From Candidatus Margulisiibacteriota bacterium (GTDB lineage Bacteria; Margulisbacteria; WOR-1; XYC2-FULL-46-14), in NCBI GenBank assembly GCA_042563095.1, contig JBHPMS010000002.1:5551-69550 (forward strand): a stretch of DNA of 64,000 nucleotides, given 5' to 3'. A program made the position numbers and the translations under genes. Below are positions 20,615-59,212 of the stretch, one piece after another; the stretch's first letter is position 1, and every line of letters starts with the position of its first letter. The notes under the pieces are model-generated. The model ran no database searches and was not told where the DNA came from. It saw nothing but the letters and a program-made list of their open reading frames with translations.

Positions 20615-20821
20615 ATGGCAGAAGCAACTTTATCTTCAAAATTTCAATTAGTGATTCCGAAAGAAATCAGAGAAGAAACTGGTTTGAAGAAGGGAGAAAA
20701 AATATACATTTTACAAAAAAATGGGATTATCAATCTTGTTCCATCTCATTTACTTAAAAATATGAGGGGATATTTAAAAGGGATGGATATTTCAAATATT
20801 AGAGACGAGGATGATCGTTGA
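20615..20821 (+). CDS. vapB: AbrB/MazE/SpoVT-family antitoxin (VapB-like)
   Basis: 68 aa. SKFQLVIPKEIREETGLKKGEKI is a swapped-hairpin beta-barrel motif. It overlaps vapC by 4 nt. Confidence 0.7.
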   Translation: MAEATLSSKFQLVIPKEIREETGLKKGEKIYILQKNGIINLVPSHLLKNMRGYLKGMDISNIRDEDDR

Positions 20822-21189
20822 TGTTAGTTGATTCCTGCGGATGGTTAGAATACTTTACCGATGGAAAATTAGCAGGTCAATTCTATAAATATCTAAAAGA
20901 TCCTGAAGAAGTTATAACCTCAACTCTGGTTATGTATGAAATTTATAAGAAAATAAAAAATGAAAGATCTGAAGAAGATGCAATACATGCAATTGCACGA
21001 CTACAAGAAACCGAAGTTGTTCCGGTAAGCCAGTCAATTACTCTTTGGGCAGCGGACTTGAGCACAGAGTATAAAATTCCAATGGCCGATGCTATCATTT
21101 ACGCTACTGCTCTTTCCAATAATGTTGAAGTTGTTACATCTGATCAGCATTTTAAACACCTTCCGGAAGTAGTTTATTTGGGAAAATAG
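20818..21189 (+). CDS. vapC: PIN-domain toxin VapC
   Basis: 123 aa. MMLVDSCGWLEYF... with the acidic PIN residues (D5, E, D, D). Confidence 0.75.
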   Translation: MMLVDSCGWLEYFTDGKLAGQFYKYLKDPEEVITSTLVMYEIYKKIKNERSEEDAIHAIARLQETEVVPVSQSITLWAADLSTEYKIPMADAIIYATALSNNVEVVTSDQHFKHLPEVVYLGK

Positions 21190-22475: not shown

Positions 22476-24986
22476 ATGAGTAGATTAGCAAATGTAGGAC
22501 TCGAGAAATTTGGTGGTAGTAAACTGGGACAACAGCAATTAAAATTTATACATAAACATCAACAGAGTGGGGCCATGACAACCGTTAGGCAACAATCTGA
22601 TTTAAGAAGGACTTTTCTAGAAAATGTTGCTGCAAACCATCCTGCCGGGATTCCTGTGATGTTGTTTAATCTTAAAAATCCATATGAGCAGACAATTATA
22701 TTAGATTCAAAGAAACTAGAAAAATACAATATCGATCAGTATTTTGCAGATTTTAAAAGATTGGCTCCCAAGGCAACAGCCGGACTAAGAGAAACTTATG
22801 ATGTATTAAATTGGAATAACCCAAATTATTTGTATAATCCAGTATTTTTAACACTATTAATAGAAGCTGAAGCTAGATTTATTAAAGAACAACATACTGT
22901 CAAGTCAGAAATGTTAAAAGGAATTGATCTATCTGCAAAGGCGGCGGAAGTAGAAAAGGAATTATCACCTAATACTATATCTACAATAAGAGAAGTGTTT
23001 GAAGGAAAGAGCCTGGTTGAAATATTGAAACTTTTAAGAGATAAACCAATGAAGGTTATGGGGAAAGAAGTTAGACCTCAAACTGATCAGATGCTTGAGC
23101 TGGAAGTACGACTAATGGCTGAAAACGGGATCGCCGTCATTACATCGGAAAAATTTAGCGATACCACAAATATATACCTCACATCTTTCCTCTGCTTTTT
23201 ATTGGGATCAGATGGTGGTACTTATTACACCCCAAGTCATAGTTCAGTTTATGTGCTTGGGAGAAAGGTTCTTTCTCAAGAAGGAGCCCAATTATTGCCG
23301 GAGCTTTATAACCGCTTTATTGAGATACTAGAAGAAATAATTGGAGTTGCAAAAGATAAAGGACTGATGGTTAGTCTTGGAGCAAGAGGGGGCGAAAATA
23401 TTTACAATACTTTGTCATATGAGAGGACTGCAAAATTATTTGCAAAAGCAATGAATCATGATCCAAAAACCATTGATATGATTAATGAAGCAGCAGATAA
23501 AGGACTTAGAATAACACTTAATACCCTATCCGGAAGTGCTGCAAAAAGTTTAGCTTCTCAATTAGTAGCATTTGGAGTTGACAAAAAAGTATTTCAACCA
23601 TTATGGGAAAAAGAAGATTCCTATTTTAATGCCGGTTATGTTGCTGGCTTTAAAGATGGAGAATATTTTGTTGATCATTTAGGAGTTGATACTTCGGCTC
23701 CAAAAGTTGTACAGCAAATTCCTTATGCAGAAAAACTCAAAAATGCACCAATTGGTCGAATGGTCTACGAGTGTGATCCGGATAATGATCGCTTTTTAGT
23801 TAAACAGGTCTTAGCAGAGGATGCGATCCCGCTTTGTGAAGTATATGGGATAGATTATTATAAGCTGGGGAATGGTAGAATTTTGGTTGCCCCAAGCCCT
23901 AATAAAATATTTTTAATGCTGGATATTGCCGATTATGAAAGGATGAAGGCTTCAGGTGAATGGGAGAAATATCATTTCTTATATTTCCCAACCTATGTCT
24001 CATCAGCTGCCTGGGTTGAATTTGCAAATTATTTGGCAAGAAAAGAAGGAAATATCTCAACCTTCTTATGCCGGGTTGGATTTAAAAACTTTAATCAGGC
24101 CTTAACCCAAATTCAGGATTGGTGGTTTAATAGACCGGAGGAACCAACTCTTACAATTAAACCTCAATTGGGGGATCCTATTACCCTTAACCGGGACAAA
24201 CCATTACGAGTCCTAAGTAAAGAAGAAGAAAGTGGCGGAAGAACAGCTGGCCAGGCAGCAGCATTAACTAATATTCTTGGTGAAAGGATGCTTTCATTGC
24301 CAGAAAAAGCTGTTGGAGATGCCTTGATGGCACATCTGGCTGATATGGCAAGAAGATATCTGGAGAAGCAGGAATTACGTTTACCAAGTATAATTGATAC
24401 TGCTTATACAAAATATCAATTAATATCTAAAATTGACTATCGCTTGGATATTCTTCATGGTGACCAGGGTATCATTGCACAGGTTGGTCCAGAAAAAGCA
24501 GCAAAATTAAAATCACAGGCTGGTGCAGAAAAAGCCAACTTTAATAACTTTTTCTTTTCATTGGGTATTGCAGAACAAACAGCAAAACTAAGCCTTGATA
24601 AAATAAGGGGTATTTTAAAAGCAGTGCTCCCTGAATGGTCTGATACCTGGAATTGCCTGGACAGTATTCAATATGTAGAAGAAGAGTTAACCGCTACTCA
24701 AACACGACCGGAGGGAGTGGTGATGTCATTTAATGCTAAGGATGGAAAAACTCCTTTGGTGACTAAATTTAAATTCAGGCCTTCCGGCACAGATCCCTTA
24801 AAGAGTAAAGTCTATATTGATGCTGTTGTATTAAGAATGGAACAAATAAGAGAAATTGAAGACCGCAATAATCACCTAAAACGCCTTGATCTTTATGGTG
24901 TACTTGATCATTACGGGATAGAATATGCAGAAGCTAAACCAGCTGAAGCAGGTCAGATTGAATTAAGACCAGTAGCGTTAAATTAG
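22476..24986 (+). CDS. Atypically long (836 aa) alpha-D-phosphohexomutase-superfamily protein (phosphoglucomutase-like)
   Basis: The four ordered PGM/PMM motifs are recognisable. They are the phosphoserine loop YYTPSHSS (compare TASHNP), the metal loop ECDPDNDRF (DGDGDR), the sugar loop EEESGG (GEESGG) and the phosphate loop RPSGTDP (RPSGTEP). It lies between pfkA and pgi. Confidence 0.55.
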   Translation: MSRLANVGLEKFGGSKLGQQQLKFIHKHQQSGAMTTVRQQSDLRRTFLENVAANHPAGIPVMLFNLKNPYEQTIILDSKKLEKYNIDQYFADFKRLAPKATAGLRETYDVLNWNNPNYLYNPVFLTLLIEAEARFIKEQHTVKSEMLKGIDLSAKAAEVEKELSPNTISTIREVFEGKSLVEILKLLRDKPMKVMGKEVRPQTDQMLELEVRLMAENGIAVITSEKFSDTTNIYLTSFLCFLLGSDGGTYYTPSHSSVYVLGRKVLSQEGAQLLPELYNRFIEILEEIIGVAKDKGLMVSLGARGGENIYNTLSYERTAKLFAKAMNHDPKTIDMINEAADKGLRITLNTLSGSAAKSLASQLVAFGVDKKVFQPLWEKEDSYFNAGYVAGFKDGEYFVDHLGVDTSAPKVVQQIPYAEKLKNAPIGRMVYECDPDNDRFLVKQVLAEDAIPLCEVYGIDYYKLGNGRILVAPSPNKIFLMLDIADYERMKASGEWEKYHFLYFPTYVSSAAWVEFANYLARKEGNISTFLCRVGFKNFNQALTQIQDWWFNRPEEPTLTIKPQLGDPITLNRDKPLRVLSKEEESGGRTAGQAAALTNILGERMLSLPEKAVGDALMAHLADMARRYLEKQELRLPSIIDTAYTKYQLISKIDYRLDILHGDQGIIAQVGPEKAAKLKSQAGAEKANFNNFFFSLGIAEQTAKLSLDKIRGILKAVLPEWSDTWNCLDSIQYVEEELTATQTRPEGVVMSFNAKDGKTPLVTKFKFRPSGTDPLKSKVYIDAVVLRMEQIREIEDRNNHLKRLDLYGVLDHYGIEYAEAKPAEAGQIELRPVALN

Positions 24987-43772: not shown

Positions 43773-45131
43773 GTGGCAAAAATGAGTAAAAACAAACCGA
43801 ATGTGTTAGTTATAGATGATGAAGAGAATATGTTGTTAACCTATAAATCAATTCTAAAAAAGAAGTACAATACGGTATTAGTTAACCGAGGACAAGCGGG
43901 AATAGATAAGGTAAATGAGCAAGAATTTGCAGCAGTAATTGTTGACCTAAAAATGCCAGACATGGATGGACTAGAGGTATTACGTAAAATAAAAGAGATC
44001 AATCCAGATCAAAATGTGGTTATGTCCACGGCTATGAATGATGCAAAAATTGCAATCCAGGCGATCCGTAATGGAGCTCTTGAGTATATAACCAAACCAT
44101 TTGAAATTGATGAATTAGTTGCACTGATGGATAAGGTTATGGAAAGGAATAATCTAATAAAAGAGAACTCGTATCTTAAGACAGTTTTACAGGAACAAAA
44201 AACCTATTTTGACCTGATCGGACAAACCCAGGTAATGCAAAATATTTTTATGACAATTGAAAACATCAGTGCTGCAGACAGCACCGTCTTAATCACCGGT
44301 GAATCCGGAACCGGTAAGGAGTTAGTGGCTCACGCCATTCACAATAAAAGCAACCGCAAGGCCCGGCCATTTGTAATTGTTAATTGTGCAGCTATCCCAG
44401 AAAATTTGCTCGAATCAGAACTGTTTGGCCACGAAAGAGGTGCTTTTACCGGTGCTTTGGAGCGAAAAATTGGTAAATTTGAACTGGCCGATGGCGGTAC
44501 AATATTTTTGGACGAGATCGGTTGTATGCCGCTGTCAATGCAGTCAAAACTATTACGGATCGTACAGGATAGTAAGATTAGCAGAGTGGGCGGCAAAAAT
44601 CCGATCGAAGTTGATGTCCGGATATTAGCTGCTACAAATGCAAATATCGAGACTGAGATCAAGAAAGGTAATTTTAGAGAAGACCTTTTTTACCGGCTAA
44701 ACGTAATCCCAATAAAACTCCCCCCGTTAAGGGAGAGAAAAAATGATATTCCTCTTTTTGTCAGCTACTTTCTTAATAAATTCAACCGCGATCTCAAAAA
44801 AGCTATTAAAACAATCAGCCCTGACGCAATCAGATCACTTTTGGAATACAATTGGCCCGGGAATGTAAGGGAGTTGCAAAACCTGATTGAGCGGGCAGTA
44901 GCATTAAATGGGAACAAAGATGTCATTGATAGTATCCAGGTCAGTACTTCTTCAAAATCAGAAGATTCGAAAAGAAAAAAAAATTTGAAAGAAGCTACTG
45001 CTGAATTTGAAAAAGAATACATCAAAAGTGCGTTAAAAACTGTTAATGGCAACCAATCGGCAGCTGCGCGCTTATTAGAAATTCACCGGACTACCCTGAT
45101 CTCAAAAATGGAACTGCTCGGTTTAAAATAA
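43773..45131 (+). CDS. Sigma-54-dependent response regulator (NtrC family: REC-AAA+-Fis HTH)
   Basis: REC domain (VLVIDDE...D at VDLKMPDMDG), Walker A GESGTGKE, the GAFTGA motif (ERGAFTGAL) and a C-terminal HTH. Confidence 0.9.
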   Translation: MAKMSKNKPNVLVIDDEENMLLTYKSILKKKYNTVLVNRGQAGIDKVNEQEFAAVIVDLKMPDMDGLEVLRKIKEINPDQNVVMSTAMNDAKIAIQAIRNGALEYITKPFEIDELVALMDKVMERNNLIKENSYLKTVLQEQKTYFDLIGQTQVMQNIFMTIENISAADSTVLITGESGTGKELVAHAIHNKSNRKARPFVIVNCAAIPENLLESELFGHERGAFTGALERKIGKFELADGGTIFLDEIGCMPLSMQSKLLRIVQDSKISRVGGKNPIEVDVRILAATNANIETEIKKGNFREDLFYRLNVIPIKLPPLRERKNDIPLFVSYFLNKFNRDLKKAIKTISPDAIRSLLEYNWPGNVRELQNLIERAVALNGNKDVIDSIQVSTSSKSEDSKRKKNLKEATAEFEKEYIKSALKTVNGNQSAAARLLEIHRTTLISKMELLGLK

Positions 45132-46160
45132 AAGTGTAAAGCGAGTCCCCTCTCCAACCTTTGATTTTACCTGAACGTCACCAGCATGTTCTTTAATAAT
45201 CTTGTAAGTAATCGCAAGCCCCAGCCCGGTTCCACTAGTTTTAGTAGAAAAGAAAGGATCAAAGATATTCTTTATCTTATCCTCTGGAATCCCCAGTCCG
45301 TTATCAAGTATATCAATCTTTACTTTTTCAGCTGCCTTTGAAGTTTTCACTTCTAGCTTACCCCCTTTTGGCATGGCCTGAATCGCATTTAATATGAAAT
45401 TGGTCATAACTTGCTTTATCTGCTGTTGGTCTAGATCCCGATTGGGGACCTCTCCCAGTTTCTTTTCTAATTTAATCCCTTTTTTCATCATTTCTGATTC
45501 AAAAAGTTTTAAAACGTGTTCTAATACTTCATTAATATTAAGTGGAGCTTTTTGCGGTGTTGGTGGCTTTGAATAAGTCAACAAATTTTGGACCAGCTTG
45601 TTGATCCGATCTAACTCTTTTGGCACGACCTTTTTAAAATCTTCCAGGGATTCTTTATCGTTATCCTTGATTGCACTTTCCAGTATCTGGGTCATCCCTT
45701 TGATTGACGCTAAAGGATTTTTGATCTCGTGTGCCATTCCGGCTGCAACTGTTCCAAGTGATGCCAATTTATCAGCATGGAGCAGGCGGGCCTGGGCCTC
45801 CATCATTTCTTCATGCAATTGTGCTTTCTGTATTGCAATAGCTAATTGATTAGAAAGGGTGTTTAAAAAAATCAAATCCTCTTCATCATACATCTCTTCA
45901 TCTTCTTTTGGGCCAAGCGTGAACAGGCCAATCATCTTTTCTTCGGTATTTAGCGGAACGCAAACTTCGCCCCCTGCCTTTTTAAGTTCATCCCATGCCC
46001 TGGTGTCTGGCCCTAGGCTCAACTCTTCAAGCAGAAATGCCCGCTTAGTCTTTTTTAAACACTCAACCAGTGCACTATCCTTTTTTATAATATTACTTCC
46101 TATTTCTAACACTAGCTGCTCCTCTAAAGTGATAATAGCACGCAAGTATTTTAACTGCAA
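45123..46160 (-). CDS. Cytoplasmic sensor histidine kinase (HisKA + HATPase_c)
   Basis: H-box AHEIKNPL, and an ATP lid DNGLGIPEDK...GTGLGLAI. There is no TM segment. It is convergent with, and overlaps, the NtrC-like regulator. Confidence 0.85.
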   Translation of the reverse strand: MQLKYLRAIITLEEQLVLEIGSNIIKKDSALVECLKKTKRAFLLEELSLGPDTRAWDELKKAGGEVCVPLNTEEKMIGLFTLGPKEDEEMYDEEDLIFLNTLSNQLAIAIQKAQLHEEMMEAQARLLHADKLASLGTVAAGMAHEIKNPLASIKGMTQILESAIKDNDKESLEDFKKVVPKELDRINKLVQNLLTYSKPPTPQKAPLNINEVLEHVLKLFESEMMKKGIKLEKKLGEVPNRDLDQQQIKQVMTNFILNAIQAMPKGGKLEVKTSKAAEKVKIDILDNGLGIPEDKIKNIFDPFFSTKTSGTGLGLAITYKIIKEHAGDVQVKSKVGEGTRFTLLF

Positions 46161-49764: not shown

Positions 49765-50405
49765 AACCACTGGCTTATGAACTTAAATCCCAACCATTTA
49801 TGGACTTTGATTTTTATGTTGACCAGAATGTGCTTATCCCCCGGCCGGAAACTGAACAGTTAGTTGAAAAAGCAATCGAAGAAATTAAAAATTTAAAATT
49901 AAAAATTAAAAACTTGGAGCTATTAGATCTTGGGACTGGATCGGGCTGTATTGCGGTCTCACTGGCAAAGTATTTTTCACATGTTAAAATTACGGCGGTT
50001 GATTCATCGCCGGATGCGCTTGCTGTTGCCAGGAAGAATGCAAAAATCCATAACGTTTATGATCGGATTGAGTTTATAGAAGGCAACCTGCTCGAACCTC
50101 TGGCCGGCCGGAAGTTTGATCTAATTATCAGTAATCCACCCTATATCCCAAGTAAAGATATTGAAACACTTGATTCTGGCGTCAAAGAGTGGGAACCGCG
50201 AAAAGCATTGGACGGCGGTGTTGATGGATTAGACTATATTCGTAAGCTTATTCAAGAAGGACCGGAATATTTAAACCCGGGCGGCATGCTTATTTTTGAA
50301 ATGGGTTATGGGCAGGCTGAAGCTATACGACGGCTATGCCCGGGAGTGGAAATAATAAAAGACTATGCAGGAATCGATAGAATCGCAATTAAAAGAGTCA
50401 GTTAG
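49761..50405 (+). CDS. prmC: Release-factor glutamine N5-methyltransferase PrmC (short form)
   Basis: VLIPRPETE, DLGTGSGCIA and NPPY motifs. It is 214 aa and lacks the usual roughly 70-aa N-terminal domain. Confidence 0.8.
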   Translation: MKPLAYELKSQPFMDFDFYVDQNVLIPRPETEQLVEKAIEEIKNLKLKIKNLELLDLGTGSGCIAVSLAKYFSHVKITAVDSSPDALAVARKNAKIHNVYDRIEFIEGNLLEPLAGRKFDLIISNPPYIPSKDIETLDSGVKEWEPRKALDGGVDGLDYIRKLIQEGPEYLNPGGMLIFEMGYGQAEAIRRLCPGVEIIKDYAGIDRIAIKRVS

Positions 50406-50916
50406 GATATTAAAAACCGGAGGAGTGATTATTTTCCCAACTGACACAGTCTACGGCATTGGTTGTGCGTATGATAATAAAGCAGGGATTGAGCGAATTT
50501 ATGAGATAAAGAAAAGACCGAAATATAAACCACTACAGATATTAATTTCAGATATTAAACAACTCGATGCTCTGGCAGCCGAAATCCCGGCTGCAGCTCA
50601 AGAATTGATGGAGAAGTATTGGCCGGGAGCGTTGACCCTGATACTCAAGACTAAGGGCCAAAGACTAAACACAATCGGGATCAGGATGCCAAATCATCCT
50701 ATTCCTTTACAAATAATAAAAGAACTCGGGAAACCATTAGCGGCAACCTCGGCCAATCTTTCCGGAGAGCCAGATCCCTCCTCCCCGGCTGAGATAACAA
50801 TAAAGGCTGATTATTTAATTGATGCTGGAAAGATTGAAAATCCACAAGCCTCCTCGGTGATTGATGTGACCTGTAATCCTCCAAAAATCCTCAGAAAAGG
50901 CCGGATCAAAATTTAA
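50365..50916 (+). CDS. tsaC: L-threonylcarbamoyladenylate synthase TsaC/YrdC
   Basis: IIFPTDTVYGIGC...KYWPGALTLIL...TSANLSGEP. Confidence 0.8.
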   Translation: MQESIESQLKESVRILKTGGVIIFPTDTVYGIGCAYDNKAGIERIYEIKKRPKYKPLQILISDIKQLDALAAEIPAAAQELMEKYWPGALTLILKTKGQRLNTIGIRMPNHPIPLQIIKELGKPLAATSANLSGEPDPSSPAEITIKADYLIDAGKIENPQASSVIDVTCNPPKILRKGRIKI

Positions 50917-50917
50917 A

Positions 50918-51085
50918 CTGAAATTTTTAGATTTATAGCAAGATAAATATGCGGGAATGGAGAAGGAGAAAAGGGTTTAAATAAATGTTTGGAACTGGAC
51001 CAATAACGTTAGCTGCAAGAATAAAAAGCAGTATTTGCCATAGCAACTACAAAGAAGGCGCTGGGGCTAATCCTCCAAAGCAAGG
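50918..51085. repeat. Direct repeat copy 1 (promoter region + RBS + first 28 codons), near-identical to 52225..52392
   Basis: CAAGATAAATATGCGGGAATGGAGAAGGAGAAAAGGGTTTAAATAAATGTTTGGAACTGGACCAATAACGTTAGCTGCAAGAATAAAAAGCAGTATTTGCCATAGCAACTACAAAGAAGGCG... has only a few mismatches against copy 2. Confidence 0.85.
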
Positions 51086-51530
51086 ATATTCTCTTCAGAT
51101 TGAGCATATTGAAAGCTTACGAGGAAAAGACTTTAGATTTGACCAGCTACGCAGAACCGCACTGGCAGAACTTATTATTAAACGAACTTTGATAGTTGAT
51201 GATGATCTGCTCGTTAGCAAATCAACTATGAGAATATTGAAATTGATCCTAAAAGATGCAGAAGTTGAAATAATAACCTGCGATCAGAATGAAGTTGATG
51301 AACATCTTAAGACCCAATTCGATCTGTTAATTACTGATTACGAAATGCCTGGAATGAATGGAGATGAAGTGATTAGAAAATACAAGGAATCAGGACAGGG
51401 AGGACTTATAATTGGCCATAGCGGGGATAGTGACAATCTTGACTTTTTTTATAAGGCAGGAGCAGACCTGGCCGGCGTAAAACCACTTTCGGTTAGTTTT
51501 TGGAAAAAGATATTCGGGTCAAGAGATTAA
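50985..51530 (+). CDS. Single-domain response regulator (CheY-like REC) with a 70-aa N-terminal leader (gene A of the REC operon)
   Basis: REC residues are intact: LIVDDD, phospho-acceptor DLLITDYEMPGMNG, IIGHSGD and GVKP. The N-terminal MFGTGPITLAARIKSSICHSNYKEGAGA is shared with gene C. Confidence 0.7.
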   Translation: MFGTGPITLAARIKSSICHSNYKEGAGANPPKQGYSLQIEHIESLRGKDFRFDQLRRTALAELIIKRTLIVDDDLLVSKSTMRILKLILKDAEVEIITCDQNEVDEHLKTQFDLLITDYEMPGMNGDEVIRKYKESGQGGLIIGHSGDSDNLDFFYKAGADLAGVKPLSVSFWKKIFGSRD

Positions 51531-51535
51531 GGAAG

Positions 51536-52201
51536 ATGTTATTCATAAGCGGGATCAGATACGGAATAACTGCTCAAAGGGTTAAACTTAGTCTTTTTAA
51601 AACCAGTCATTATTGTCCTTCACAATACGATAAGTGGTCTTTTCTGGGCAAACGGCAGAAGGTAAACGGCACCAACCACTATGTTATAGACAATATTCCG
51701 TTATTTGCAGAAAACAGCCGGCAAACAATCAAACAAATATCCAGAGACTTGCTATGGAGAACAACGTTTTTACTCCACTGCCAAAAAAAACATTTTTTTA
51801 TTAATCAAGGAAAACTTACAAATAGCGGAAAATTTGAGCTAGCCAATAAAGCCGCTAATTTGTTTTGTCCCTTAAAAATACCAGGAATCCCAAAAAGCAG
51901 TTCAATTTCTGAAGTCATTGAGGAGTTGTCTGAAGGATTAGAGCGTCAAATTGAAGCAGAGATTTTCAATTATCTGCTTAAGAAATTTCGGACTGTTTTT
52001 GGGGAAAAAACAGAAATAAGTAATATTCTAGCAATTGAAAAGGATGAAAAAGATATTTACTTTCTTCTTGAATTATCTTCTGATAATAAGGGCCTCCATC
52101 AGCATCGTTTTAAACTGGGCAATAATCATGGAATATTTTTTAGACTAACCTTAAATGAACAAAATCATAGTCTGCGACTGGATCAGGATAAAAAAATCTA
52201 G
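51536..52201 (+). CDS. Hypothetical protein (gene B), no recognisable motifs
   Basis: ATG 6 nt after gene A's stop, with an AAGGAAG RBS. 221 aa. Confidence 0.45.
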   Translation: MLFISGIRYGITAQRVKLSLFKTSHYCPSQYDKWSFLGKRQKVNGTNHYVIDNIPLFAENSRQTIKQISRDLLWRTTFLLHCQKKHFFINQGKLTNSGKFELANKAANLFCPLKIPGIPKSSSISEVIEELSEGLERQIEAEIFNYLLKKFRTVFGEKTEISNILAIEKDEKDIYFLLELSSDNKGLHQHRFKLGNNHGIFFRLTLNEQNHSLRLDQDKKI

Positions 52202-52224
52202 TTTTTCTTTTCCACTGTTTTTAC

Positions 52225-52392
52225 CTGAAATTTTTCTGATTTGTACAAGATAAATATGCGGCAATGGAGAAGGAGAAAAGGGGGTTAAATAAATGTTCAG
52301 AACCGGACCAACAACGTTAGCTGCAAGAATAAAAAGCAGTATTTGCCATAGCAACTTCAAAGAAGGCGGTGGAGCTAAGCCTGCAGCAAGGG
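52225..52392. repeat. Direct repeat copy 2
   Basis: See copy 1. The offset is 1307-1308 bp. Confidence 0.85.
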
Positions 52393-53483
52393 TATTCTTG
52401 GCTGATGCACATGGCGGGTATGAAATCAAAAAGGCGGTCGTTCTGGATAATGAAGTTGCATTTCAATCCGAAGCGCGGAGTATTTTGGCCCCCTATATTA
52501 AAGTGAACTGTTATGACTGTGATGCTGTAATGGAGGCCGCTGAATCCGGAAAGTCTGAAAACTGTCTCTATTTTATTAGCATTGATTTATTACTCGAAAA
52601 AAAAATTAATCTCAGTAAAAAAATTAAAGAACTCCGTAAACATTGGGGAAATAGCTCATACCTCATTGGCTTATCATCACGCAGTCCCCAATCATTAACA
52701 AGAGAAATCATTAAAGCAGGTTTTGATAGAATTATTAAAAAAATTGATTTCTCACAATCTGTTAAAAATGCTTTAAAGAATTGCCATGTTATCGATATGG
52801 GAGGAATTACTCCTGATCAGGTAATTGAGGAGCCAGTTTTAGTAAGGCATGATTCGGCAGACCCCCCCAGCATCTTCGCACGACCGATTACAACAAAAGC
52901 CTGCCAAATAACAGCAAAACAAAAAGAAAACAAAACAGTATATTTATATAAACTGGCGAGCGAAAAGGGGAAAAGCAGCAAGGCAAATGCCCCGCCTCCT
53001 ATAGAGGGGACAGTAGAATTTGAAAAATATAGTTCGAATCATGGTCTGGCAAACCGAATTCTTATTATAAGCCCGCCATCCGATAATAATTTAAGAAAAC
53101 AACTTAAACGAAGGTTTTCATTTGAACTTGGGAAAACTTTAAATGAAATCACCTTAACCCTGCTTGATTCGGCGGAGGAGCAGAAAGTAAATATCGTTTA
53201 TACTAATACCACAGATGAGTTAACGGGAGTTGTTTATCAGTTATCTTATGAGGAACGGCTGCCTGAGGTAATATTTGTCTATTCTAACCCCACTGTCGAA
53301 ATAAGCGGAACAGAAATGGTTAAACGTATCCGTGAATTAAAGAAGGAATGTTATATAATTGGCGTTGCTAAATGTCAAACCGACCCGGTCAAATTTTACA
53401 ATGCTGGAGCAGACCAAACCATATTCGAAGATAAGCTGCCTGAATTTATTAGACGTTTCTTTGTTGAAAAAAAGGAAGAGTAA
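52293..53483 (+). CDS. Leader-REC-linker-pseudoREC protein (gene C)
   Basis: It has the same 28-aa N-terminus as gene A. The REC at about residues 45-165 is VVLDNE...YFISIDLLL...LSS...IIKKI. The C-terminal REC-like fold has Tyr in place of the acceptor Asp (EVIFVYSNPTVEISGTEMVKRIRE...FEDKLP). Confidence 0.6.
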   Translation: MFRTGPTTLAARIKSSICHSNFKEGGGAKPAARVFLADAHGGYEIKKAVVLDNEVAFQSEARSILAPYIKVNCYDCDAVMEAAESGKSENCLYFISIDLLLEKKINLSKKIKELRKHWGNSSYLIGLSSRSPQSLTREIIKAGFDRIIKKIDFSQSVKNALKNCHVIDMGGITPDQVIEEPVLVRHDSADPPSIFARPITTKACQITAKQKENKTVYLYKLASEKGKSSKANAPPPIEGTVEFEKYSSNHGLANRILIISPPSDNNLRKQLKRRFSFELGKTLNEITLTLLDSAEEQKVNIVYTNTTDELTGVVYQLSYEERLPEVIFVYSNPTVEISGTEMVKRIRELKKECYIIGVAKCQTDPVKFYNAGADQTIFEDKLPEFIRRFFVEKKEE

Positions 53484-53484
53484 T

Positions 53485-55062
53485 ATGCATTTAAGATTAG
53501 GAAAGGTTGTTAGAACAAGTGCTTTTTTTATACCTGCTGATGGGAATGGCGGGGAGTTTGGAAAGGGAGGATTAAAATCAACTAAACCTGCTCAGCTTCC
53601 CAGCGATGTAATTGTACCAATCAAATCAGAAGCCCATTCTGAGTTTGTTGACAGCCTTAGTATTACAGATGATATAACAAAATTACCAACTAAGGTCCTT
53701 CCCCTAGATATAAGAAATAACATTGCCAAAGAAGAATGTAATATTAGAAGGATAATACATCAAATAGTAACTGGATACTACTCGAATGAATCCTATTCTA
53801 CTATAAAGCACCTACTAGAATTGGGTGCCGGAAAAGATATATCAGATTTATTTGGAAGAATATCTATAACCAGAATAAACTATGGCCGTGTTGTAGGAGA
53901 TGTGGCTTTTTTACTTAACACTGCTGAGTGTGAAAAGATAATTGGGGCTGGCAAAGCAAAACTACAAAAAATGAGAGATGAATCGGAGATCAAGCTGAGA
54001 GCACAAGCAGCCAAGGTTTCCACTGCAGCGCCGTTTAAAACTAGAGTAGAAGAAATAATTCAATTCTGGCTGGATATCGGTAAACCACAAAATGTTTCAT
54101 TAATAAATAGCATTTTTAGCAATAATGATAAAGCTGCAGCAAAAAATGAGTTTATATTATTTTTAAAGAATGAAAAGATGCTCCGATTCCAAATAGAATT
54201 GGGTGCTGATCAAGAGAAATTCAATTGCTTTTCTAAACTTAATGATTTAGTAATAAGTTATGCCAGATGGATACAGGATCCAAAAAGTACCATACCCTAT
54301 ATCACAGCAACTATCGAACGAAGCCATTTCAGATGGGTACAAGGCCTTAAAAGCATCAAACCCAGTATTGAAGCTACAATTGGGCATTTTAAAGATTATT
54401 TCGATATGCTTGATAATTTGGTAGGCGAGAGCAAAAATAATTATAGTAATGAATTCGACAAAGAAGAGCTAGAACGTATTATAATTAATACCAAAATGGC
54501 CACAAAAACAATTTATCATTATTCTGCGAATGAAGACAAAGCCCGAATCGTTTCATTTCTAATGGACCACTTTTCTGCCAATTTTGGAAATAGAAAATCA
54601 GCCGACATCGCCCTGGAAATAGTGGAAGAGATCTCAAAACAAGAGCAAGCAACTGTTCTCAGCCACATTATTGACCACCTTGGTGATAGAAAGGATGACT
54701 TTGTAATTTTGCTAGCAAACATTGTAACCAGTAAAAACACAGACGTTTCTTCCCCTGCTATTACTAACATACTTGCCACAATAATTCCAATTCACCCAGA
54801 TACAGCGAAGGATTATTTGCGAATACTCTGTTCTAAGATATTTGGCCCAAATAGAATATTGGATTTTCTTGAAAACCAACACCCCCTTTTCTGGCAAAAT
54901 ATAATTGACAGATTAAAAAATGGAGACACCTGTGTTGTAGTTAAATATTTGCAAGCATTTCACACTAATTATCAAGAGCATTCAAACGAAGATAATAGTA
55001 CTACATATGCCGGTGTATTTAATCTGAATAAAAAGGATTATATAACTATAATAAGAGGTTAA
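53485..55062 (+). CDS. Hypothetical 525-aa protein (gene D), predicted all-alpha, no motifs
   Basis: ATG 1 nt after gene C's stop with an AAAGGAAG RBS. The track ORF starts upstream in another part of gene C. Confidence 0.45.
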   Translation: MHLRLGKVVRTSAFFIPADGNGGEFGKGGLKSTKPAQLPSDVIVPIKSEAHSEFVDSLSITDDITKLPTKVLPLDIRNNIAKEECNIRRIIHQIVTGYYSNESYSTIKHLLELGAGKDISDLFGRISITRINYGRVVGDVAFLLNTAECEKIIGAGKAKLQKMRDESEIKLRAQAAKVSTAAPFKTRVEEIIQFWLDIGKPQNVSLINSIFSNNDKAAAKNEFILFLKNEKMLRFQIELGADQEKFNCFSKLNDLVISYARWIQDPKSTIPYITATIERSHFRWVQGLKSIKPSIEATIGHFKDYFDMLDNLVGESKNNYSNEFDKEELERIIINTKMATKTIYHYSANEDKARIVSFLMDHFSANFGNRKSADIALEIVEEISKQEQATVLSHIIDHLGDRKDDFVILLANIVTSKNTDVSSPAITNILATIIPIHPDTAKDYLRILCSKIFGPNRILDFLENQHPLFWQNIIDRLKNGDTCVVVKYLQAFHTNYQEHSNEDNSTTYAGVFNLNKKDYITIIRG

Positions 55063-55065
55063 ACC

Positions 55066-56703
55066 ATGTCTATTCATAGAATATATAGATCACCAAGATG
55101 CAGGGATACAAGGGAACTGGTTGCTCCGCGGCATATGGAGGCAAGATTAACAAGAGATGATTTATTTAAAAGCAGTGGATTAGTGGCGGCCAGAGACGAT
55201 AATGATTTATCTGGTGGGATTGCCAACACTAACCCACTCACTCTATTATTAAGAGTTAAGAATCGTCATCTTCTAATAAATGATATTTTAGTTTATAGCG
55301 GCGATGAGAGTTTTTGCAATGTCACAAACATGGTGTTGCAAGAATTAAAAGAAAGGCATAATTTTGGTTATAAATTTAAAGTTGTAAATGATAGCATAAG
55401 TGCGCTTGATTACCTCAAAAAACCAACAGGTGACAGGCCGGACCTGATTATCTGCGGCGATGATGAGTTGGGATCTATTTCTTATTGTCTGGGGCCACCT
55501 ACTCAAAGGCCCTGCATCATCTGTTGCGTTGATGATTTAATGAATGTTTCATCGCAGAAAAGTAATGAATTACAAAATGAGGGAGTTGTATTGCCGATTA
55601 ACCAAGACCATCTGCCTTTATATATTGTCAATGCATTTAGACAGCAATACCATGCTGGACCAGAAAATTCAGCAACTCAAACGTTAGATAATCCTGGTTT
55701 TGATGTTACTGTTGATACACCTATAAACGGGAAGCCAGAATCCCTTGTTGATATGAGAACCGGAAAATTTAGAAATATCCTGGTAATAAGTAGAGACATC
55801 CCACTAATAGAATCAATTAGAAGCAACTTGAGGTCCACCCGGCCTCGCATTCAATCCACACAAAATAATAGGATTCCTTTGATCGACCAGGCAGCTGCTG
55901 CTCTTTTTCTTGATGAGCCTGACCTGGTATTAGTTGATTTACAAAATCCAGATGCGATTGACATAATCGAAAAACTAAGGTCAATAGAGAATCTTTTTAT
56001 AAAAAGCCAACGCAAATTTTGGCTGGGTGGCATTAGCAAAACAGGGCTGAGTCAAGAGGCAAAGGTAAATCTATCGCAATTAAGTGATTCAATAAATTTT
56101 ATTTATGAGGAACCCCGGTTTGGCTCGGATCTTTTTCGCACCCTTACCGAATCAGATAGTTTATTTAAAAGATCAACCAGCAAGGAATTGGCCGCCATTG
56201 GAACAAACCAGGTTTTGATCAGTGAATCTTATCATAAACCGGAACGCCCAGAAAAAGTTAGAAATATTTTAATGGTTACTAATATTTATGATCAACATTC
56301 AATCTCGCATATAAAAAATATCTTTAACAAGCTAAAAAAAGAATTTGTAATTAACTCATTATTTAATGTTGACTCACAAATCATTCTAGGTAAAGAACAA
56401 AAAATGATTGAATTAAGCACTACCGGTCAGTCTGATTCTGCAGTCAATATTTACACGGTATATTTAAAACAATTTAAGGACTTTGCTTTGGCCAGAATCC
56501 ATAGATATATTACTGCATATGTGAGGGGTCTTGAAATTGATATGATATTTATGCAGGATAAGACTTTTGCTGAATTACTTAGAAAAAAGGAAAATTATCG
56601 GGGCTATATTATTGATACCTCTAATGAAGTCCAGAATGCTGATTTTGACTGTGCAATAACATCAAATCCAGCTTTATTTCTAAAAGTTTTATTTATAGCC
56701 TAA
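55066..56703 (+). CDS. Protein with two degenerate REC-like domains plus an unknown 200-aa C-terminal domain (gene E)
   Basis: REC-like 1 is HLLINDILVY...RPDLIICGDDELGS. REC-like 2 is NILVISRDIP...PDLVLVDLQNPDAIDIIEKLRSIE. It has no HK, Hpt or DNA-binding motif. Confidence 0.45.
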   Translation: MSIHRIYRSPRCRDTRELVAPRHMEARLTRDDLFKSSGLVAARDDNDLSGGIANTNPLTLLLRVKNRHLLINDILVYSGDESFCNVTNMVLQELKERHNFGYKFKVVNDSISALDYLKKPTGDRPDLIICGDDELGSISYCLGPPTQRPCIICCVDDLMNVSSQKSNELQNEGVVLPINQDHLPLYIVNAFRQQYHAGPENSATQTLDNPGFDVTVDTPINGKPESLVDMRTGKFRNILVISRDIPLIESIRSNLRSTRPRIQSTQNNRIPLIDQAAAALFLDEPDLVLVDLQNPDAIDIIEKLRSIENLFIKSQRKFWLGGISKTGLSQEAKVNLSQLSDSINFIYEEPRFGSDLFRTLTESDSLFKRSTSKELAAIGTNQVLISESYHKPERPEKVRNILMVTNIYDQHSISHIKNIFNKLKKEFVINSLFNVDSQIILGKEQKMIELSTTGQSDSAVNIYTVYLKQFKDFALARIHRYITAYVRGLEIDMIFMQDKTFAELLRKKENYRGYIIDTSNEVQNADFDCAITSNPALFLKVLFIA

Positions 56704-56727
56704 AAACTCACCGCAACTTCGTAAAAT
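56699..56727. repeat. Left 29-bp direct repeat flanking the AbiE cassette (relic of the OMP 3' end, encoding FYEVAVSF*)
   Basis: CCTAAAAACTCACCGCAACTTCGTAAAAT versus CCTAAAAACTCAACGCCACCTCGTAGAAT at 58057..58085 (25/29 identical). Confidence 0.75.
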
Positions 56728-56729
56728 AA

Positions 56730-57431
56730 TTATTCGCTATCCCTCATCAATTTGAGCAGAAAAATCGTCTCATCTAAAAGCTTTTGCTTAACCCAGACTT
56801 TCTGCTTTTTATCTAACAGCTCACCAATACCGGATAAAATATTACGGCTGCTCATTTTGGAGAGTAGGTCAATGCATTCTTCAAGAAACTTTTTAAAAGT
56901 CTTTTTTACACGTTGTTCTACCAGTTCTTTGTTAATCGGCCAATTGTTATTGAAGAAAAACCAGACATCATAAATATCGCGGTTGGTCCTTCCAATCCTC
57001 TCATACATCGCAACCAATTTCTGAGCCGCCATATCCGGTTTGACCATTACCTTCATCGAAATACCAAGATAGGCCTTAACTTCATAACTTGATCCAAAGG
57101 CTCTGCGGTTTATCTCAACTTTAATATTCTGCGCGCCTTTTTCTTTATCTTTATAAGAGAGCAGAAAAAAAAGATTAAACCTTTTCTTTTCTGCTTTTTT
57201 TACGGAGCCGTAGCTTTCCAAAATCTTTCTGATCCGCTCAAAGATAACCTGCTCCCTACCCTTATCCAGCAGATCAAAATCAAGATCGACCGAAAAGCGG
57301 CTGAGATTATAAAAAAGATATGCAGCTGTGCCTCCCTTAAAACCCAAAAGCGGACCAACTGTTGTGTCAGTAAAAATATCTTTTAGGATCCTGATCAGAA
57401 GATTTTTATGCTTTGATATATCAAGTGACAT
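56730..57431 (-). CDS. abiEii: Nucleotidyltransferase toxin AbiEii (DUF1814)
   Basis: LLGFKGGTAAYLFYNLSRFSVDLDFD, a polymerase-beta-like NTase motif. Confidence 0.8.
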   Translation of the reverse strand: MSLDISKHKNLLIRILKDIFTDTTVGPLLGFKGGTAAYLFYNLSRFSVDLDFDLLDKGREQVIFERIRKILESYGSVKKAEKKRFNLFFLLSYKDKEKGAQNIKVEINRRAFGSSYEVKAYLGISMKVMVKPDMAAQKLVAMYERIGRTNRDIYDVWFFFNNNWPINKELVEQRVKKTFKKFLEECIDLLSKMSSRNILSGIGELLDKKQKVWVKQKLLDETIFLLKLMRDSE

Positions 57432-57996
57432 TTTTTTGATACCTACTAACTATTTGAGCCATACGTTTGTTGCCATCGTAGGTCGGCAGAATTTCTTGTA
57501 CCCGCTCCCAATTTATAGCTGAAAGATTATCAAAGTGATAATCCTGATTCAAATAAAGTAGATCCAAAAACGCCCTCTCCGAAGACGCAATGCTGTAGTT
57601 ATCCATTATCTTGATGCCAGCACTATTTGTTAATATCGGAGCTTTAACCGTCTTATAGTTGTAAGTCTGTCCGTCACAAACAATGTCCTTAGACTGATAT
57701 GAAGCCACAAATATTTGGCTGTAATATTGGAAAATAATGCCGGCCTTTGTTAAAACAGTCTCAAAACTTATATATGATGGTGTATATATTTTGGTGGCAA
57801 GCTCGAATTTATCATATTTTTTATCTTTTGCATACAATCCCCGCCGAATAGAATAAAGACCACCGTGTTTTGTGTAGTAATTTGCTCTGGCCTTTGCTGT
57901 TTTTTTATCGATATTCCCCCAAAGTAAAATGAGGTCCTTAAAAGAAAAAACAGTTTTATCTGACCTTAATAATTGGTTTAAAAATCCTCTTTCCAT
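57421..57996 (-). CDS. abiEi: AbiEi-like antitoxin/transcriptional regulator
   Basis: 191 aa, immediately upstream of and overlapping AbiEii. The size and arrangement are typical of type IV AbiE. Confidence 0.65.
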   Translation of the reverse strand: MERGFLNQLLRSDKTVFSFKDLILLWGNIDKKTAKARANYYTKHGGLYSIRRGLYAKDKKYDKFELATKIYTPSYISFETVLTKAGIIFQYYSQIFVASYQSKDIVCDGQTYNYKTVKAPILTNSAGIKIMDNYSIASSERAFLDLLYLNQDYHFDNLSAINWERVQEILPTYDGNKRMAQIVSRYQKNVT

Positions 57997-58002
57997 GATT
58001 TA

Positions 58003-58039
58003 AGAGTCAAAGGTAAGGAATATTCTTACCTTTGGCTCT
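58003..58039. promoter_or_regulatory. Inverted repeat AGAGTCAAAGGTAAGG-AATATT-CCTTACCTTTGGCTCT directly upstream of abiEi (candidate operator and bidirectional terminator)
   Basis: 14-15 bp arms with one mismatch. AbiEi-family antitoxins bind inverted repeats in their own promoter. Confidence 0.45.
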
Positions 58040-58056
58040 TATTATACCATATTAAC

Positions 58057-58085
58057 CCTAAAAACTCAACGCCACCTCGTAGAAT
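58057..58085. repeat. Right 29-bp direct repeat (authentic OMP 3' end)
   Basis: See 56699..56727. Confidence 0.75.
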
Positions 58086-59212
58086 TGAGTCTCCTCCACC
58101 TGCCCCGTAGCCGGATTATAAGCTTTGCGATAATGCGTAATTACTTTTGTAAACGGATTGACGTAATAACCGATCTTGGCACCCATCACCGCCCCATTTT
58201 CTAAGGTTAAAGAATTAAAATCAACAAAGTTTGGCTGCTGATAATAAGCGGACACTTCGATATCTTCTCTTAAATACGATTCAGCCAGTGCTGCAATTGC
58301 ACCATTGCCCCCATTATAGTTTTCATAAGAAATGTCTAAGTTCAATACTTTTGGCAGCTTTGCTTTAAAATCAGCAAAATAACCATCACGGCGAATACCC
58401 TGGGCGGCAACTGAACTTATGTCGGTCGGATTGATCTCATATTCCTCATTAAAATAACCAGGAACAAAATTCCCTCCCACAAAACGGTATCCAGTATCAA
58501 ATGCAGCAACAAAGCCGAGCATTTGGGTTGACCAATCAATACCAACTGAAGCTGCTTTCCCGTGATTATTTAACTGAGCCGCCTCAGCATAACCTTCAAA
58601 CCCAAAAGGAAATGGGACCGTAGCATCAACTGCAATTCCTCCCTGTGGAGCGAAACTTCTGATTGTACCATCCGATTGTCTAACTTGTACACCATCCTCA
58701 TCAGTTACAAATGATTGACCTAAAATTAACATCGGATGGACTCTTTGCGTTAGACGGATTGCATAAACATGTGACCAGGTGTTCATAGCATGAAATCCGA
58801 AAATATTGTGGTTATAATAGCCTTTTAATCCCATCTGGTCATTATAACTAAGGCCAGGTAATGCAACTCGAGTAGCATAATTTTTCATCAACAAACCGTG
58901 CCCCAGAGTAATCCGATCCAGTATTCCATAACGCAAACCTTTCTGCCCATCATCATATTCGGCATAACGGAATACAACCGATTCATAATCTGCTGGGCGG
59001 ACATTTCCAAGCGGAACATTAACATCCAATCCTAAACCCAACGGACCAAGCTTGAGGTCCGGCCGCCATGACAAACTGCCTACCTCAACTGTTCCAGCTT
59101 TTACATACCCTGCACTAACGGTATTAGAAACTTTGTCAAACATACCAGCTTCGGCTGAAAATGACCAAGATGCAAGAAACAAGATACAAATAATTACCAA
59201 TATATTTTTCAT
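58058..59212 (-). CDS. Outer-membrane beta-barrel protein (porin-like), signal peptide and C-terminal Phe
   Basis: MKNILVIICILFLASWSFSAEA signal peptide, alternating amphipathic strands, and the protein ends ...YEVALSF. Confidence 0.55.
   Translation of the reverse strand: MKNILVIICILFLASWSFSAEAGMFDKVSNTVSAGYVKAGTVEVGSLSWRPDLKLGPLGLGLDVNVPLGNVRPADYESVVFRYAEYDDGQKGLRYGILDRITLGHGLLMKNYATRVALPGLSYNDQMGLKGYYNHNIFGFHAMNTWSHVYAIRLTQRVHPMLILGQSFVTDEDGVQVRQSDGTIRSFAPQGGIAVDATVPFPFGFEGYAEAAQLNNHGKAASVGIDWSTQMLGFVAAFDTGYRFVGGNFVPGYFNEEYEINPTDISSVAAQGIRRDGYFADFKAKLPKVLNLDISYENYNGGNGAIAALAESYLREDIEVSAYYQQPNFVDFNSLTLENGAVMGAKIGYYVNPFTKVITHYRKAYNPATGQVEETQFYEVALSF

Follow-up and report, generated by a model that had tools for sequence, protein, structure and literature searches.

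Background

Gene conversion between bacterial paralogues such as tufA and tufB acts on genes with homology from end to end and keeps them almost identical. The locus described here resembles the tufA/tufB case in having, within one genome, a local tract of high identity that takes in synonymous sites and non-coding DNA, but it differs in that the tract is 181 bp long, is 11.5% diverged, and belongs to two genes whose remaining DNA is unalignable. Partial (5'-end) gene duplication, or promoter capture, likewise fuses a promoter, an RBS and the first codons to an unrelated ORF. Set against promoter capture and chimeric genes, here too the junction was re-framed by an indel and both copies are decaying, apparently neutrally; unlike simple promoter capture, the recipient here heads a three-gene orphan operon.

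The slot that holds these genes is also like genomic hot spots and defence islands, in that its cargo varies between core genes and its GC content is below that of most of the surrounding window (the window being the whole 64-kb stretch of DNA that was analysed, from a Candidatus Margulisiibacteriota MAG). Unlike defence islands, its cargo besides AbiE matches no known defence protein (PADLOC), and unlike other hot spots one cargo type, a REC gene of the gene A type together with its promoter, recurs and looks resident. Sites of the form TAAAGTTT-N11-GCCGATAA are the E. coli FliA promoters of chemotaxis and flagellar class-3 genes (PMC4183435), and Margulisbacteria are reported to have flagellins together with FlgV, a protein whose conservation goes along with that of sigma-28 (PMC7018530, PMC11607428).

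A variable slot between tsaC and purH

The features of the locus, in order along the window, are:

50365..50916, + strand: tsaC, encoding L-threonylcarbamoyladenylate synthase, the conserved left flank of the slot (family profiles, synteny)
50912..51092, + strand: repeat copy 1, with promoter motif, 5'UTR and RBS, ATG and gene A codons 1–30 (plus 14 nt); begins at the tsaC stop codon
50920..50946, + strand: promoter-like motif GAAATTTT-N11-CAAGATAA, copy 1, in a sigma-28-like register; alternatively CTGAAA-N18-GATAAA (sigma-70-like, weak)
50959..50975, + strand: Shine-Dalgarno region GGAGAAGGAGAAAAGGG, purine-rich, 5' of the ATG at 50985; its copy 2 counterpart lies at 52266–52283
50985..51530, + strand: gene A, a 181-aa single-domain response regulator (MFC1495906.1; Pfam, family alignment, AlphaFold)
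51500..52201, + strand: gene B, an orphan ORF of 221 aa (ATG 51536) or 233 aa (TTG 51500) that overlaps or abuts the end of gene A
52219..52398, + strand: repeat copy 2, the equivalent module heading gene C
52227..52253, + strand: promoter-like motif GAAATTTT-N11-CAAGATAA, copy 2
52293..53483, + strand: gene C, a 396-aa orphan (MFC1495908.1, hypothetical), with the apparently copied 30-residue leader and then degenerate REC-like segments
53485..55062, + strand: gene D, a 525-aa orphan whose ATG lies 1 nt past the gene C stop, in an operon with gene C
55066..56703, + strand: gene E, a 545-aa orphan, 3 nt past the gene D stop
56730..57996, - strand: AbiEii/AbiEi toxin-antitoxin (abortive infection) pair, filling the rest of the slot (Pfam, NCBIfam, PADLOC)
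58058..59212, - strand: conserved 384-aa gene, the right flank of the slot, followed by purH-purN-purM (tblastn, 50–57% identity in the relatives' loci L057–L066)

Between tsaC and the 384-aa gene and purH the cargo differs in every sampled Margulisbacterium, the synteny being derived from the loci of PrfA homologues. Relatives carry IS30 or IS91 transposases and other small genes, and the slot analysed here also has the AbiE system (PADLOC, 2.8e-76 for AbiEii and 2.1e-59 for AbiEi); the tsaC–purH interval is thereby marked as a variable hot spot in the phylum. A TsaC scan of genome contigs returned distant taxa only, at 26–46% identity. GC content is 35–37% over 52–58 kb, against 39–42% for most of the remaining window, and the 52–58 kb region is foreign-looking DNA.

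Genes of the slot

The gene A protein matches the receiver family PF00072 over residues 69–168 (40.0 bits against a cut-off of 30.2, E 4.9e-10; Pfam). D73, D118 and K166-P167, which stand in the sequences IVDDD, LLITDYEMPG and GVKP, are invariant in family alignments, and the protein has the acidic Asp-Asp pocket, the phospho-acceptor Asp and the conserved Lys of a REC domain. Its layout is a disordered tail (residues 1–30), a helical extension (37–61) and the REC domain (66–170). The AlphaFold model (pLDDT 80.6) has an alternating strand-helix, REC-like fold with pLDDT above 87 over residues 41–170, and falls below 50 for residues 1–30 only; since this leader is the sole low-confidence coil of the model, grafting it onto another protein should be tolerated. 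Syntenic REC genes occupy the same slot at three of the relatives' loci from L059 to L061 (L059, L060 and L061) and at L067, where the product P0150 aligns to gene A residues 13 to 170 (E 7e-18), and the relatives' loci contain no homologue of genes B to E. By this synteny gene A is the apparent resident gene of the slot.

The spacing of C, D and E by 1–3 nt, with the overlap of A and B, fits two operons, and gene B is probably co-transcribed with gene A. The earlier note had called A and C two paralogous REC genes. This is right for A, a bona fide receiver, but weakly supported for C, which scores 19.5 bits against PF00072, under the 30.2 cut-off, and there aligns over residues 336–377 alone (Pfam). 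Outside its leader gene C resembles gene A over 38 residues only (32% identity, E 0.001), it has no match in NCBIfam or the PDB, and its single-sequence AlphaFold model (pLDDT 34) is unusable; its product is at best a degenerate pseudo-receiver. An exhaustive HMMER search among 1.84 billion representatives found no homologue of the gene C body. Searches of PADLOC, PHROGs, NCBIfam and the PDB returned nothing for genes B to E, and no relation emerged between gene B and the L063 slot gene (303 aa). Neither the 45-aa leader nor concatenated A–E retrieved anything in a word-based protein search, a weak negative in that the search missed A and C, though both are in the collection. Exact-sequence look-ups of A, C, PrfA, L31 and P0001 likewise returned no record.

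The direct repeat

A near-identical 150-bp unit had been reported to be duplicated 1.3 kb apart in front of genes A and C. Local alignment and probes bear out the direct repeat and its place: the two copies start 1307–1308 bp apart, on the same strand and in direct orientation. The unit is longer, about 181 bp (50912–51092 and 52219–52398), and "near-identical" is generous for an identity of 88.5% (162 of 183 alignment columns, the 21 differing positions falling into 16 mismatches and 4 indel events). A core of 133 nt is 92.5% identical (blastn E 6e-47), and the longest perfect run is 44 nt (AACGTTAGCTGCAAGAATAAAAAGCAGTATTTGCCATAGCAACT), which is marginally unusual (P about 0.045). Repeat probes of 40 and 37 nt match these two sites only, with 0.00 matches expected by chance. 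Further copies of the leader, a matter raised with the original description, were looked for in the 64-kb window by a six-frame motif scan and word-7 blastn, and the two known sites alone were found; no third copy of the repeat is present there. A degenerate DNA pattern for AARIKSSICHSN gave 0 matches in public genome contigs and 0 in metagenome contigs, and blastn finds no nucleotide similarity between A and C outside the repeat.

Within the repeat, the Shine-Dalgarno region is the same in both copies apart from a 1-nt indel. The leader was described previously as 28 codons with divergence setting in after about codon 30; the shared peptide has 30 residues, of which 25 are identical. A 2-nt indel after codon 30 then shifts the frame, and the DNA likeness (AGCAAGGRTATTCT) extends about 14 nt further.

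A candidate sigma-28-like promoter

The pattern GAAATTTT-N11-nnnGATAA occurs in the window at the two repeat copies only (2 observed, 0.04 expected). In relatives it stands before the slot gene at six loci, spread over four genomes (L057, L059–L061, L063 and L067), of which the L057 site was found only with a relaxed pattern; a single stray match fell in a phytoplasma locus rich in AT (L041). The 27-nt motif conserved in the relatives is GAAATTTT-N11-nnCGATAA. The earlier note had held that relatives showing no elevated conservation of this segment would speak for a very recent duplication with no function. Such conservation is indeed absent between relatives for the 5'UTR and the leader codons, and the 27-nt promoter motif alone is still conserved.

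This motif shares the 8-mer register of sigma-28 (FliA/SigD) promoters, and its spacer is exactly 11 nt at all six sites. Over five genomes the match to the E. coli sigma-28 elements is 6/8 at -35 and 5 to 7/8 at -10; the window has 6/8 and 5/8, and L059 up to 6/8 and 7/8. Unlike sigma-28 promoters, the -10 element of the window, CAAGATAA, is without the conserved C of CGATAA. Like the sigma-28 class-3 chemotaxis promoters, the motif sits before a CheY-like single-domain receiver; no flagellar genes lie within the 64-kb window. Judged by motif resemblance, the promoter may be recognised by a sigma factor of the sigma-28/FliA type. Several uncultured Margulisbacteria or Saganbacteria share this sigma-28-like motif, which provides a first candidate for a promoter motif in them. 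Two other candidates were set aside: a Bacteroidota-type promoter (TAnnTTTG), as the host is a Margulisbacterium and the conserved motif differs, and a uORF (MEKEKRV) 5' of the ATG, which is not conserved between the copies.

Probable copying of the gene A 5' end

The repeat is 88.0% identical in its non-coding part and 88.9% in its coding part. This equal divergence, with the likeness that runs across the frameshift and the unlike gene bodies, which share almost nothing, argues for copying at the DNA level and not for common descent of whole genes; the gene conversion, or DNA-level copying, part of the original proposal is borne out to this extent. The 30 leader codons contain 3 synonymous and 5 non-synonymous substitutions (pN/pS 0.46, Fisher P 0.36), and, judged from the two repeat copies, divergence of the leader peptide is indistinguishable from neutrality and looks like the neutral decay of a peptide that is not under selection. 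Slight hints of some constraint are the perfect 44-nt core, with its P of about 0.045, and a pN/pS under 1. For housekeeping genes, orthologues in the nearest relatives have 75% (prfA) and 68–70% (tsaC) nucleotide identity; the two repeat copies are far closer than this, so the copying event would be later than those lineage splits. The repeat has the look of an unremarkable and fairly recent copying of DNA within a hypervariable spot.

We think it likely that the 5' expression module of gene A was copied at the DNA level onto the head of gene C. The module would have consisted of the promoter, some 32 nt of 5'UTR including the Shine-Dalgarno sequence, the ATG and 30 codons for an unstructured tail, and its recipient would have been gene C as the first gene of the orphan operon C-D-E. 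The event may have been a partial duplication by illegitimate or ectopic recombination, short-tract gene conversion being less likely. An indel at the 3' edge would have re-framed the junction with gene C, and drift after the event would amount to about 11.5%, even over coding and non-coding positions. Copying most likely ran from A to C, since gene A appears resident and genes B to E are without detectable homologues. We note that this direction leans on missing homologues of C, which is negative evidence. The repeat breakpoints in this genome show no footprint of a transposase or integrase. The same promoter and RBS would start both operons, so that A-B and C-D-E would be co-regulated, and the shared 30-residue peptide would be a passenger and not a functional signal.

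Alternative explanations

It is unlikely, in our view, that A and C are old tandem paralogues from an ancient duplication of a leader-plus-REC gene, in which recurrent short-tract conversion homogenises only the 5' 180 bp and is confined to that end because identical regulation is advantageous. In favour, REC-like segments follow directly on the leader of gene C, whose C-terminal part is similar to the REC domain of A (the 38-aa match and the Pfam score above), the two genes lie in the same orientation 1.3 kb apart, and the perfect 44-nt core exceeds typical minimal recombination substrates; conversion, however, requires flanking homology, and none is left beyond the tract, the 11.5% divergence and four indels amount to no recent homogenisation, and A has orthologues whereas C has none anywhere. 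Selection on the peptide itself, which the earlier note had raised as a common regulated N-terminal segment, would make the tail, MF[G/R]TGP[I/T]TLAARIKSSICHSN[Y/F]KEG.GA, a docking or targeting short linear motif that brings A and C to the same partner, for example a kinase, a motor or a membrane site. Residues 8–21 are identical in the two proteins; like many linear motifs, the tail is predicted to be disordered; pN/pS is 0.46; and all A-family proteins bear N-terminal extensions. The codons of the identical residues, however, match at every synonymous site as well, which places the identity at the DNA level; pN/pS is not significantly below 1, five of the eight substitutions being non-synonymous; and among the 1.84 billion representatives of the exhaustive HMMER search the leader stands on no protein besides A and C. 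The N-termini of syntenic orthologues are unrelated or weakly related to it, the family-conserved PP..L.L..HI..LRG starting after the copied part, and, as read from the sequence, TTG 52398, with an AAGGG of its own before it, is an equally possible start for C. A functional peptide is improbable on this evidence, and the claim of a conserved, regulated one is not supported for what is modelled as a low-confidence coil. Nor does the leader look like an N-terminal targeting signal: it does not recur on other proteins or on orthologues, and by inspection it has no hydrophobic core and no twin-arginine motif. A microcompartment-type encapsulation peptide was also considered and rejected, as the window holds no BMC gene and the peptide is unique to A and C, and gene E residues 54–66 (NTNPLTLLLRVKN), tried as a relative of the leader, gave a non-significant E of 0.17. 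The most far-reaching idea, to which we give little credence, is that the 181-bp unit is a portable expression-and-tag cassette, with a sigma-28-type promoter of the hot spot, recruitment of C-D-E and a tail that docks both A and C. If it were true, the sigma-28-type promoter of the cassette would be kept at a Margulisbacteria hot spot and drive any gene landing there, its duplication would have recruited the acquired C-D-E into a motility/chemotaxis regulon, and the disordered tail would dock the CheY-like A and the pseudo-receiver C onto one partner.

Function at the level of RNA or of DNA rearrangement fares worse. A cis-regulatory RNA, also put forward in the earlier note, would require the 5'UTR and early codons to fold, for instance sequestering the Shine-Dalgarno sequence, and so to control translation of both operons. 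RNAalifold on the two copies gives 24 weak pairs, among them a long-range helix that pairs UGCGGGA, at the 5' end, with the repeat's 3' edge and contains the one compensatory change (G-C to C-G), and copy 1 has an anti-Shine-Dalgarno-like CCUCC pentamer at 51076–51080; this pentamer reads CCUGC in copy 2, however, the two copies have different MFE folds, and neither folds better than shuffled sequence (z-scores of -0.06 and +0.98). Rfam has no match at the gathering threshold in the window, and at E up to 10 there are chance-level matches only (E above 3), elsewhere in 50000–54000. Orthologues have 5'UTRs that share neither sequence nor length, and we regard such an RNA as very improbable. A population switch by deletion, in which RecA-mediated recombination between the copies drops the body of A together with B and so gives subpopulations with and without A-B, can draw on 181-bp direct repeats 1.3 kb apart with a 44-nt perfect core, and its product would keep an intact promoter-leader-C fusion. 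Direct orientation nevertheless makes the 1.3-kb deletion irreversible, so that the phase-variable architecture suggested previously does not follow from it; an identity of 88.5% strongly lowers recombination; and the locus has neither a recombinase (Pfam and NCBIfam find no such domain in A–E) nor a simple-sequence tract, nor inverted repeats beyond weak 20–23-nt matches. The search of public genome and metagenome collections turned up no contig with the leader motif, so no variant is known, and a switch of this kind is highly unlikely. The window does come from a MAG contig, and the slot is strain-variable among relatives, as a mis-join of two strain variants of the slot during metagenome assembly would presuppose; but 21 of the 183 alignment columns differ between the copies, and copy 2 is preceded by a unique sequence of its own that is continuous with the end of gene B; a k-mer mis-join would instead fall inside the shared 44-mer and yield a single hybrid copy, not a tandem. 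We attach practically no weight to an assembly artefact.

Breakpoints and outlook

Copying of the 5' end of gene A, the reading preferred here, would provide a natural example of a newly arrived or orphan operon that acquires its expression signals from a resident gene, whose promoter, RBS and start are copied, in a graft of the kind that tends to take in only an unstructured tail. The repeat does not open up a new class, be it of RNA elements, signal peptides or switches. It breaks off precisely where the promoter motif starts on the left and at the margin of the folded domain on the right, as a functional cassette would; survivorship of those copies that are expressed explains these positions too.

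The repeat and the genes that it heads

Genes A and C of the window are each headed by a promoter-like motif, a ribosome binding site and a leader, as the earlier note had claimed, though the repeated module spans 183 aligned columns, of which 162 (88.5%) are identical (local alignment; 16 mismatches, 4 indel events, longest perfect run 44 nt), and its leader has 30 codons. A blastn search of the 64-kb window finds a 133-nt core that is 92.5% identical between the copies (E 6e-47), its other matches being chance 10-13-mers; 40-nt and 37-nt repeat probes match the two copies only (0.00 expected), and a six-frame scan of the window for the leader peptide gave none beyond genes A and C. The repeat is genuine, far above chance and present in exactly two copies within the window.

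Features of the repeat and of the variable slot in the window
50912-51092, +, repeat copy 1 (local alignment, blastn)
52219-52398, + (same strand as copy 1), repeat copy 2 (local alignment, blastn)
50920-50946 and 52227-52253, 27-nt motif GAAATTTT-N11-nnCGATAA
50985-51530, +, gene A, MFC1495906.1, NCBI annotation "response regulator"
52293-53483, +, gene C, MFC1495908.1, NCBI annotation "hypothetical"
50917-58057, variable slot: A, B, C, D, E and AbiEii/AbiEi
56730-57996, -, complete AbiEii/AbiEi pair (type IV toxin-antitoxin / abortive infection; PADLOC E 2.8e-76 and 2.1e-59), right end of the slot

The promoter-like motif lies 6-7 nt inside the start of each copy, and copy 1 starts at the tsaC stop codon. 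In both copies the 5'UTR is about 32 nt long and includes a purine-rich SD region, GGAGAAGGAGAAAAGGG, and the ATG follows at 50985 or 52293; 25 of the 30 leader codons give the same residue in A and C, and a 2-nt indel at codons 31-32 then shifts the frame while DNA similarity (AGCAAGGRTATTCT) persists for about 14 nt more.

The two genes had been described as paralogous receiver (REC) genes. This is correct for A (181 aa), a single-domain receiver (PF00072, 40 bits) in which Asp73, Asp118 and Lys166 are present, but is weakly supported for C (396 aa), whose Pfam REC match of 19.5 bits is sub-threshold and whose likeness to A outside the leader covers 38 residues at 32% identity. Genes A and B overlap and the C-D-E spacings are 1-3 nt, so the module stands at the front of two neighbouring operons, A-B and C-D-E. 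For genes B, C, D and E, searches of Pfam, NCBIfam, PADLOC, PHROGs and PDB gave no match, barring a marginal PHROGs match for C (E 0.0074), and homologues of B-E are absent from the sampled relatives. Exhaustive HMMER with A and C against 1.84 billion representatives returned A, C and then generic REC matches to A only, with no other leader-bearing protein and nothing homologous to the body of C. We note that residues 54-66 of gene E (55066-56703), NTNPLTLLLRVKN, are weakly like the leader GTGPITLAARIKS (BLASTP E 0.17), which may be coincidental or else a very ancient remnant.

A variable slot between tsaC and purH

The PrfA of the window shares 100% identity with an NCBI protein from a Candidatus Margulisiibacteriota MAG, encoded on a contig of 73,541 bp. 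The flanks were compared with those of relatives whose PrfA is 77-83% identical and of a Saganbacteria MAG locus, L067, found through its REC protein P0150. All retrieved relatives keep rpmE-prfA-prmC-tsaC on one flank, and most have a 384-aa gene (50-57% identical) and then purH-purN-purM on the other; L067 is without the 384-aa gene and the L057 locus stops before purH.

Contents of the slot in relatives
L059, L060 and L061 (L059 12379-14179): IS30-like transposase and 218-aa REC gene
L067 (2861-4988): IS91-like transposase and 197-aa REC gene, P0150
L063 (10713-11684): 303-aa non-REC gene
L057 and L058 (L057 12393-12905): 157-aa gene
L064-L066 (L064 12292-12295): empty

The slot is hypervariable in Margulisbacteria and Saganbacteria, its cargo differing in every sampled genome. 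GC content is 35-37% at 52-58 kb of the window versus 39-42% in most of the remainder.

A conserved candidate promoter motif

Within the window, each copy has one match to the pattern TGAAATTTT-N12-16-GATAAW and there are no others (2 observed, 0.04 expected). Of the 67 fetched loci, L059, L060, L061, L063 and L067 have it immediately upstream of their slot gene, and an AT-rich phytoplasma locus gives one stray match; in L057 the site takes the variant form TGAAATCTA-N14-GATATA. In register, GAAATTTT-N11- is followed by CAAGATAA in both window copies, GGCGATAA in L059 (13461-13487), TTCGATAA in L063 (10732-10758), GAGGATAA in L067 (4280-4306) and ATCGATAT in L057 (12391-12417). This 27-nt motif is in the exact register of sigma-28/FliA promoters, TAAAGTTT-N11-GCCGATAA, of which the tar and tsr sites are examples (PMC4183435), and matches their elements at 6/8 (-35) and 5-7/8 (-10) positions; the C of CGATAA is missing from the window copies. 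A second reading of the motif is a weak sigma-70 promoter, CTGAAA-N18-GATAAA; the putative sigma-28 assignment is a lead, and the motif may be the first alternative-sigma promoter candidate to emerge for Margulisbacteria, an uncultured phylum. In L067 the GC-rich stretch 4310-4398, between the motif and the REC start codon and adjoining the IS91-family transposase, has obvious hairpin potential (GGATCCGCCGAAGGCGGGCGCGAGTGGGAACCGACACGTTCAGTGTCGGGGGCCCC).

Copying of DNA and selection on its products

The earlier note had offered gene conversion or selection on the DNA or RNA itself, the latter through a cis-regulatory RNA structure or a regulated N-terminal peptide. Identity is equal in non-coding (66/75, 88.0%) and coding (96/108, 88.9%) columns and similarity runs past the frameshift indel, both of which support an origin at the DNA level; the 44-nt perfect run is marginally above expectation for 21 randomly placed differences (P ~0.045). 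An RNA structure finds no such backing: folding z values against dinucleotide shuffles are -0.06 and +0.98, the minimum-energy structures of the copies are unlike, Rfam gives no match, and the 24 weak RNAalifold pairs include one compensatory change, which from just two sequences carries no weight. The peptide fares no better, with 3 synonymous and 5 non-synonymous differences in the 30 codons (pN/pS 0.46, Fisher P 0.36), and in the otherwise confident AlphaFold model of A (six family members; pLDDT 80.6, pTM 0.76) residues 1-30, coinciding exactly with the copied codons, are the exception, a predicted coil with pLDDT <50. Taken together, these results argue for copying at the DNA level and more or less neutral drift since then, the leader peptide being, we infer, a tolerated passenger. 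Elevated conservation among relatives, on which the earlier note had staked a function, is absent from the 5'UTR and leader codons, in contrast to the promoter motif.

The N-terminal extension of A is modelled as two helices packed against the REC domain. Receivers P0150, P0154, P0160, P0176 and P0270, from Saganbacteria and metagenome sources, have an extension in common with A residues 30-65; in these small single-domain proteins a Gly-rich stretch, PP, (R)IL(R)LN, xHINxLRG and RPxEIK precede REC.

Probable origin and timing of the second copy

P0150 aligns to A residues 13-170 (28% identity, E 7e-18), which indicates that A is the resident, vertically inherited gene, with an N-terminus that is ancestral to it; the simplest account is that the 5' module of A was copied onto C. 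Probably, illegitimate or ectopic recombination produced a partial duplication, or else a short tract was converted, and this brought the promoter, ribosome binding site and 30 codons of A in front of C; a later indel would have set the reading frame of C. The A-B and C-D-E operons would now share equivalent transcription and translation signals and so be co-regulated, possibly by a sigma-28-type factor. That the module is instead a cassette, a portable sigma-28 promoter with a docking tail that recruits an acquired operon, seems improbable. Returning to the copy event, the copies (88.5%) are far more alike than housekeeping orthologues are between the window and its nearest sampled relatives (nucleotide identity 75% for prfA, 68-70% for tsaC, 73% for purH), so it postdates those splits. 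Divergence of 11.5% and four indels rule out a very recent date, and no continuing homogenisation is apparent. Recombination between the direct repeats could remove the body of A and B, but such a deletion would be irreversible and nothing points to its use, contrary to the proposed phase-variable switch.

The nearest known parallels of the locus are partial 5'-end duplications in which promoter capture gives rise to a chimeric gene, conversion of short tracts between paralogues, class-3 sigma-28 promoters before CheY-type genes, and the variable hot spots or defence islands that lie between core genes; these kinds of event are already known, and no finding here demands a new category.

Other features of the window

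Phosphofructokinase paralogues at 19335-20543 (+) and 21206-22189 (-) flank a PIN-domain (VapC-like) gene (20818-21189, +), and between them and pgi an 836-aa ORF (22476-24986, +), for which Pfam gives nothing at E up to 1e-5, occupies a patch of 36-39% GC. At 43773-46160, about 5 kb upstream of the repeat, a sigma-54-dependent response regulator (REC, AAA+, HTH_8) is convergent with a GAF-HisKA-HATPase histidine kinase, indicating that this genome uses sigma-54 regulation.
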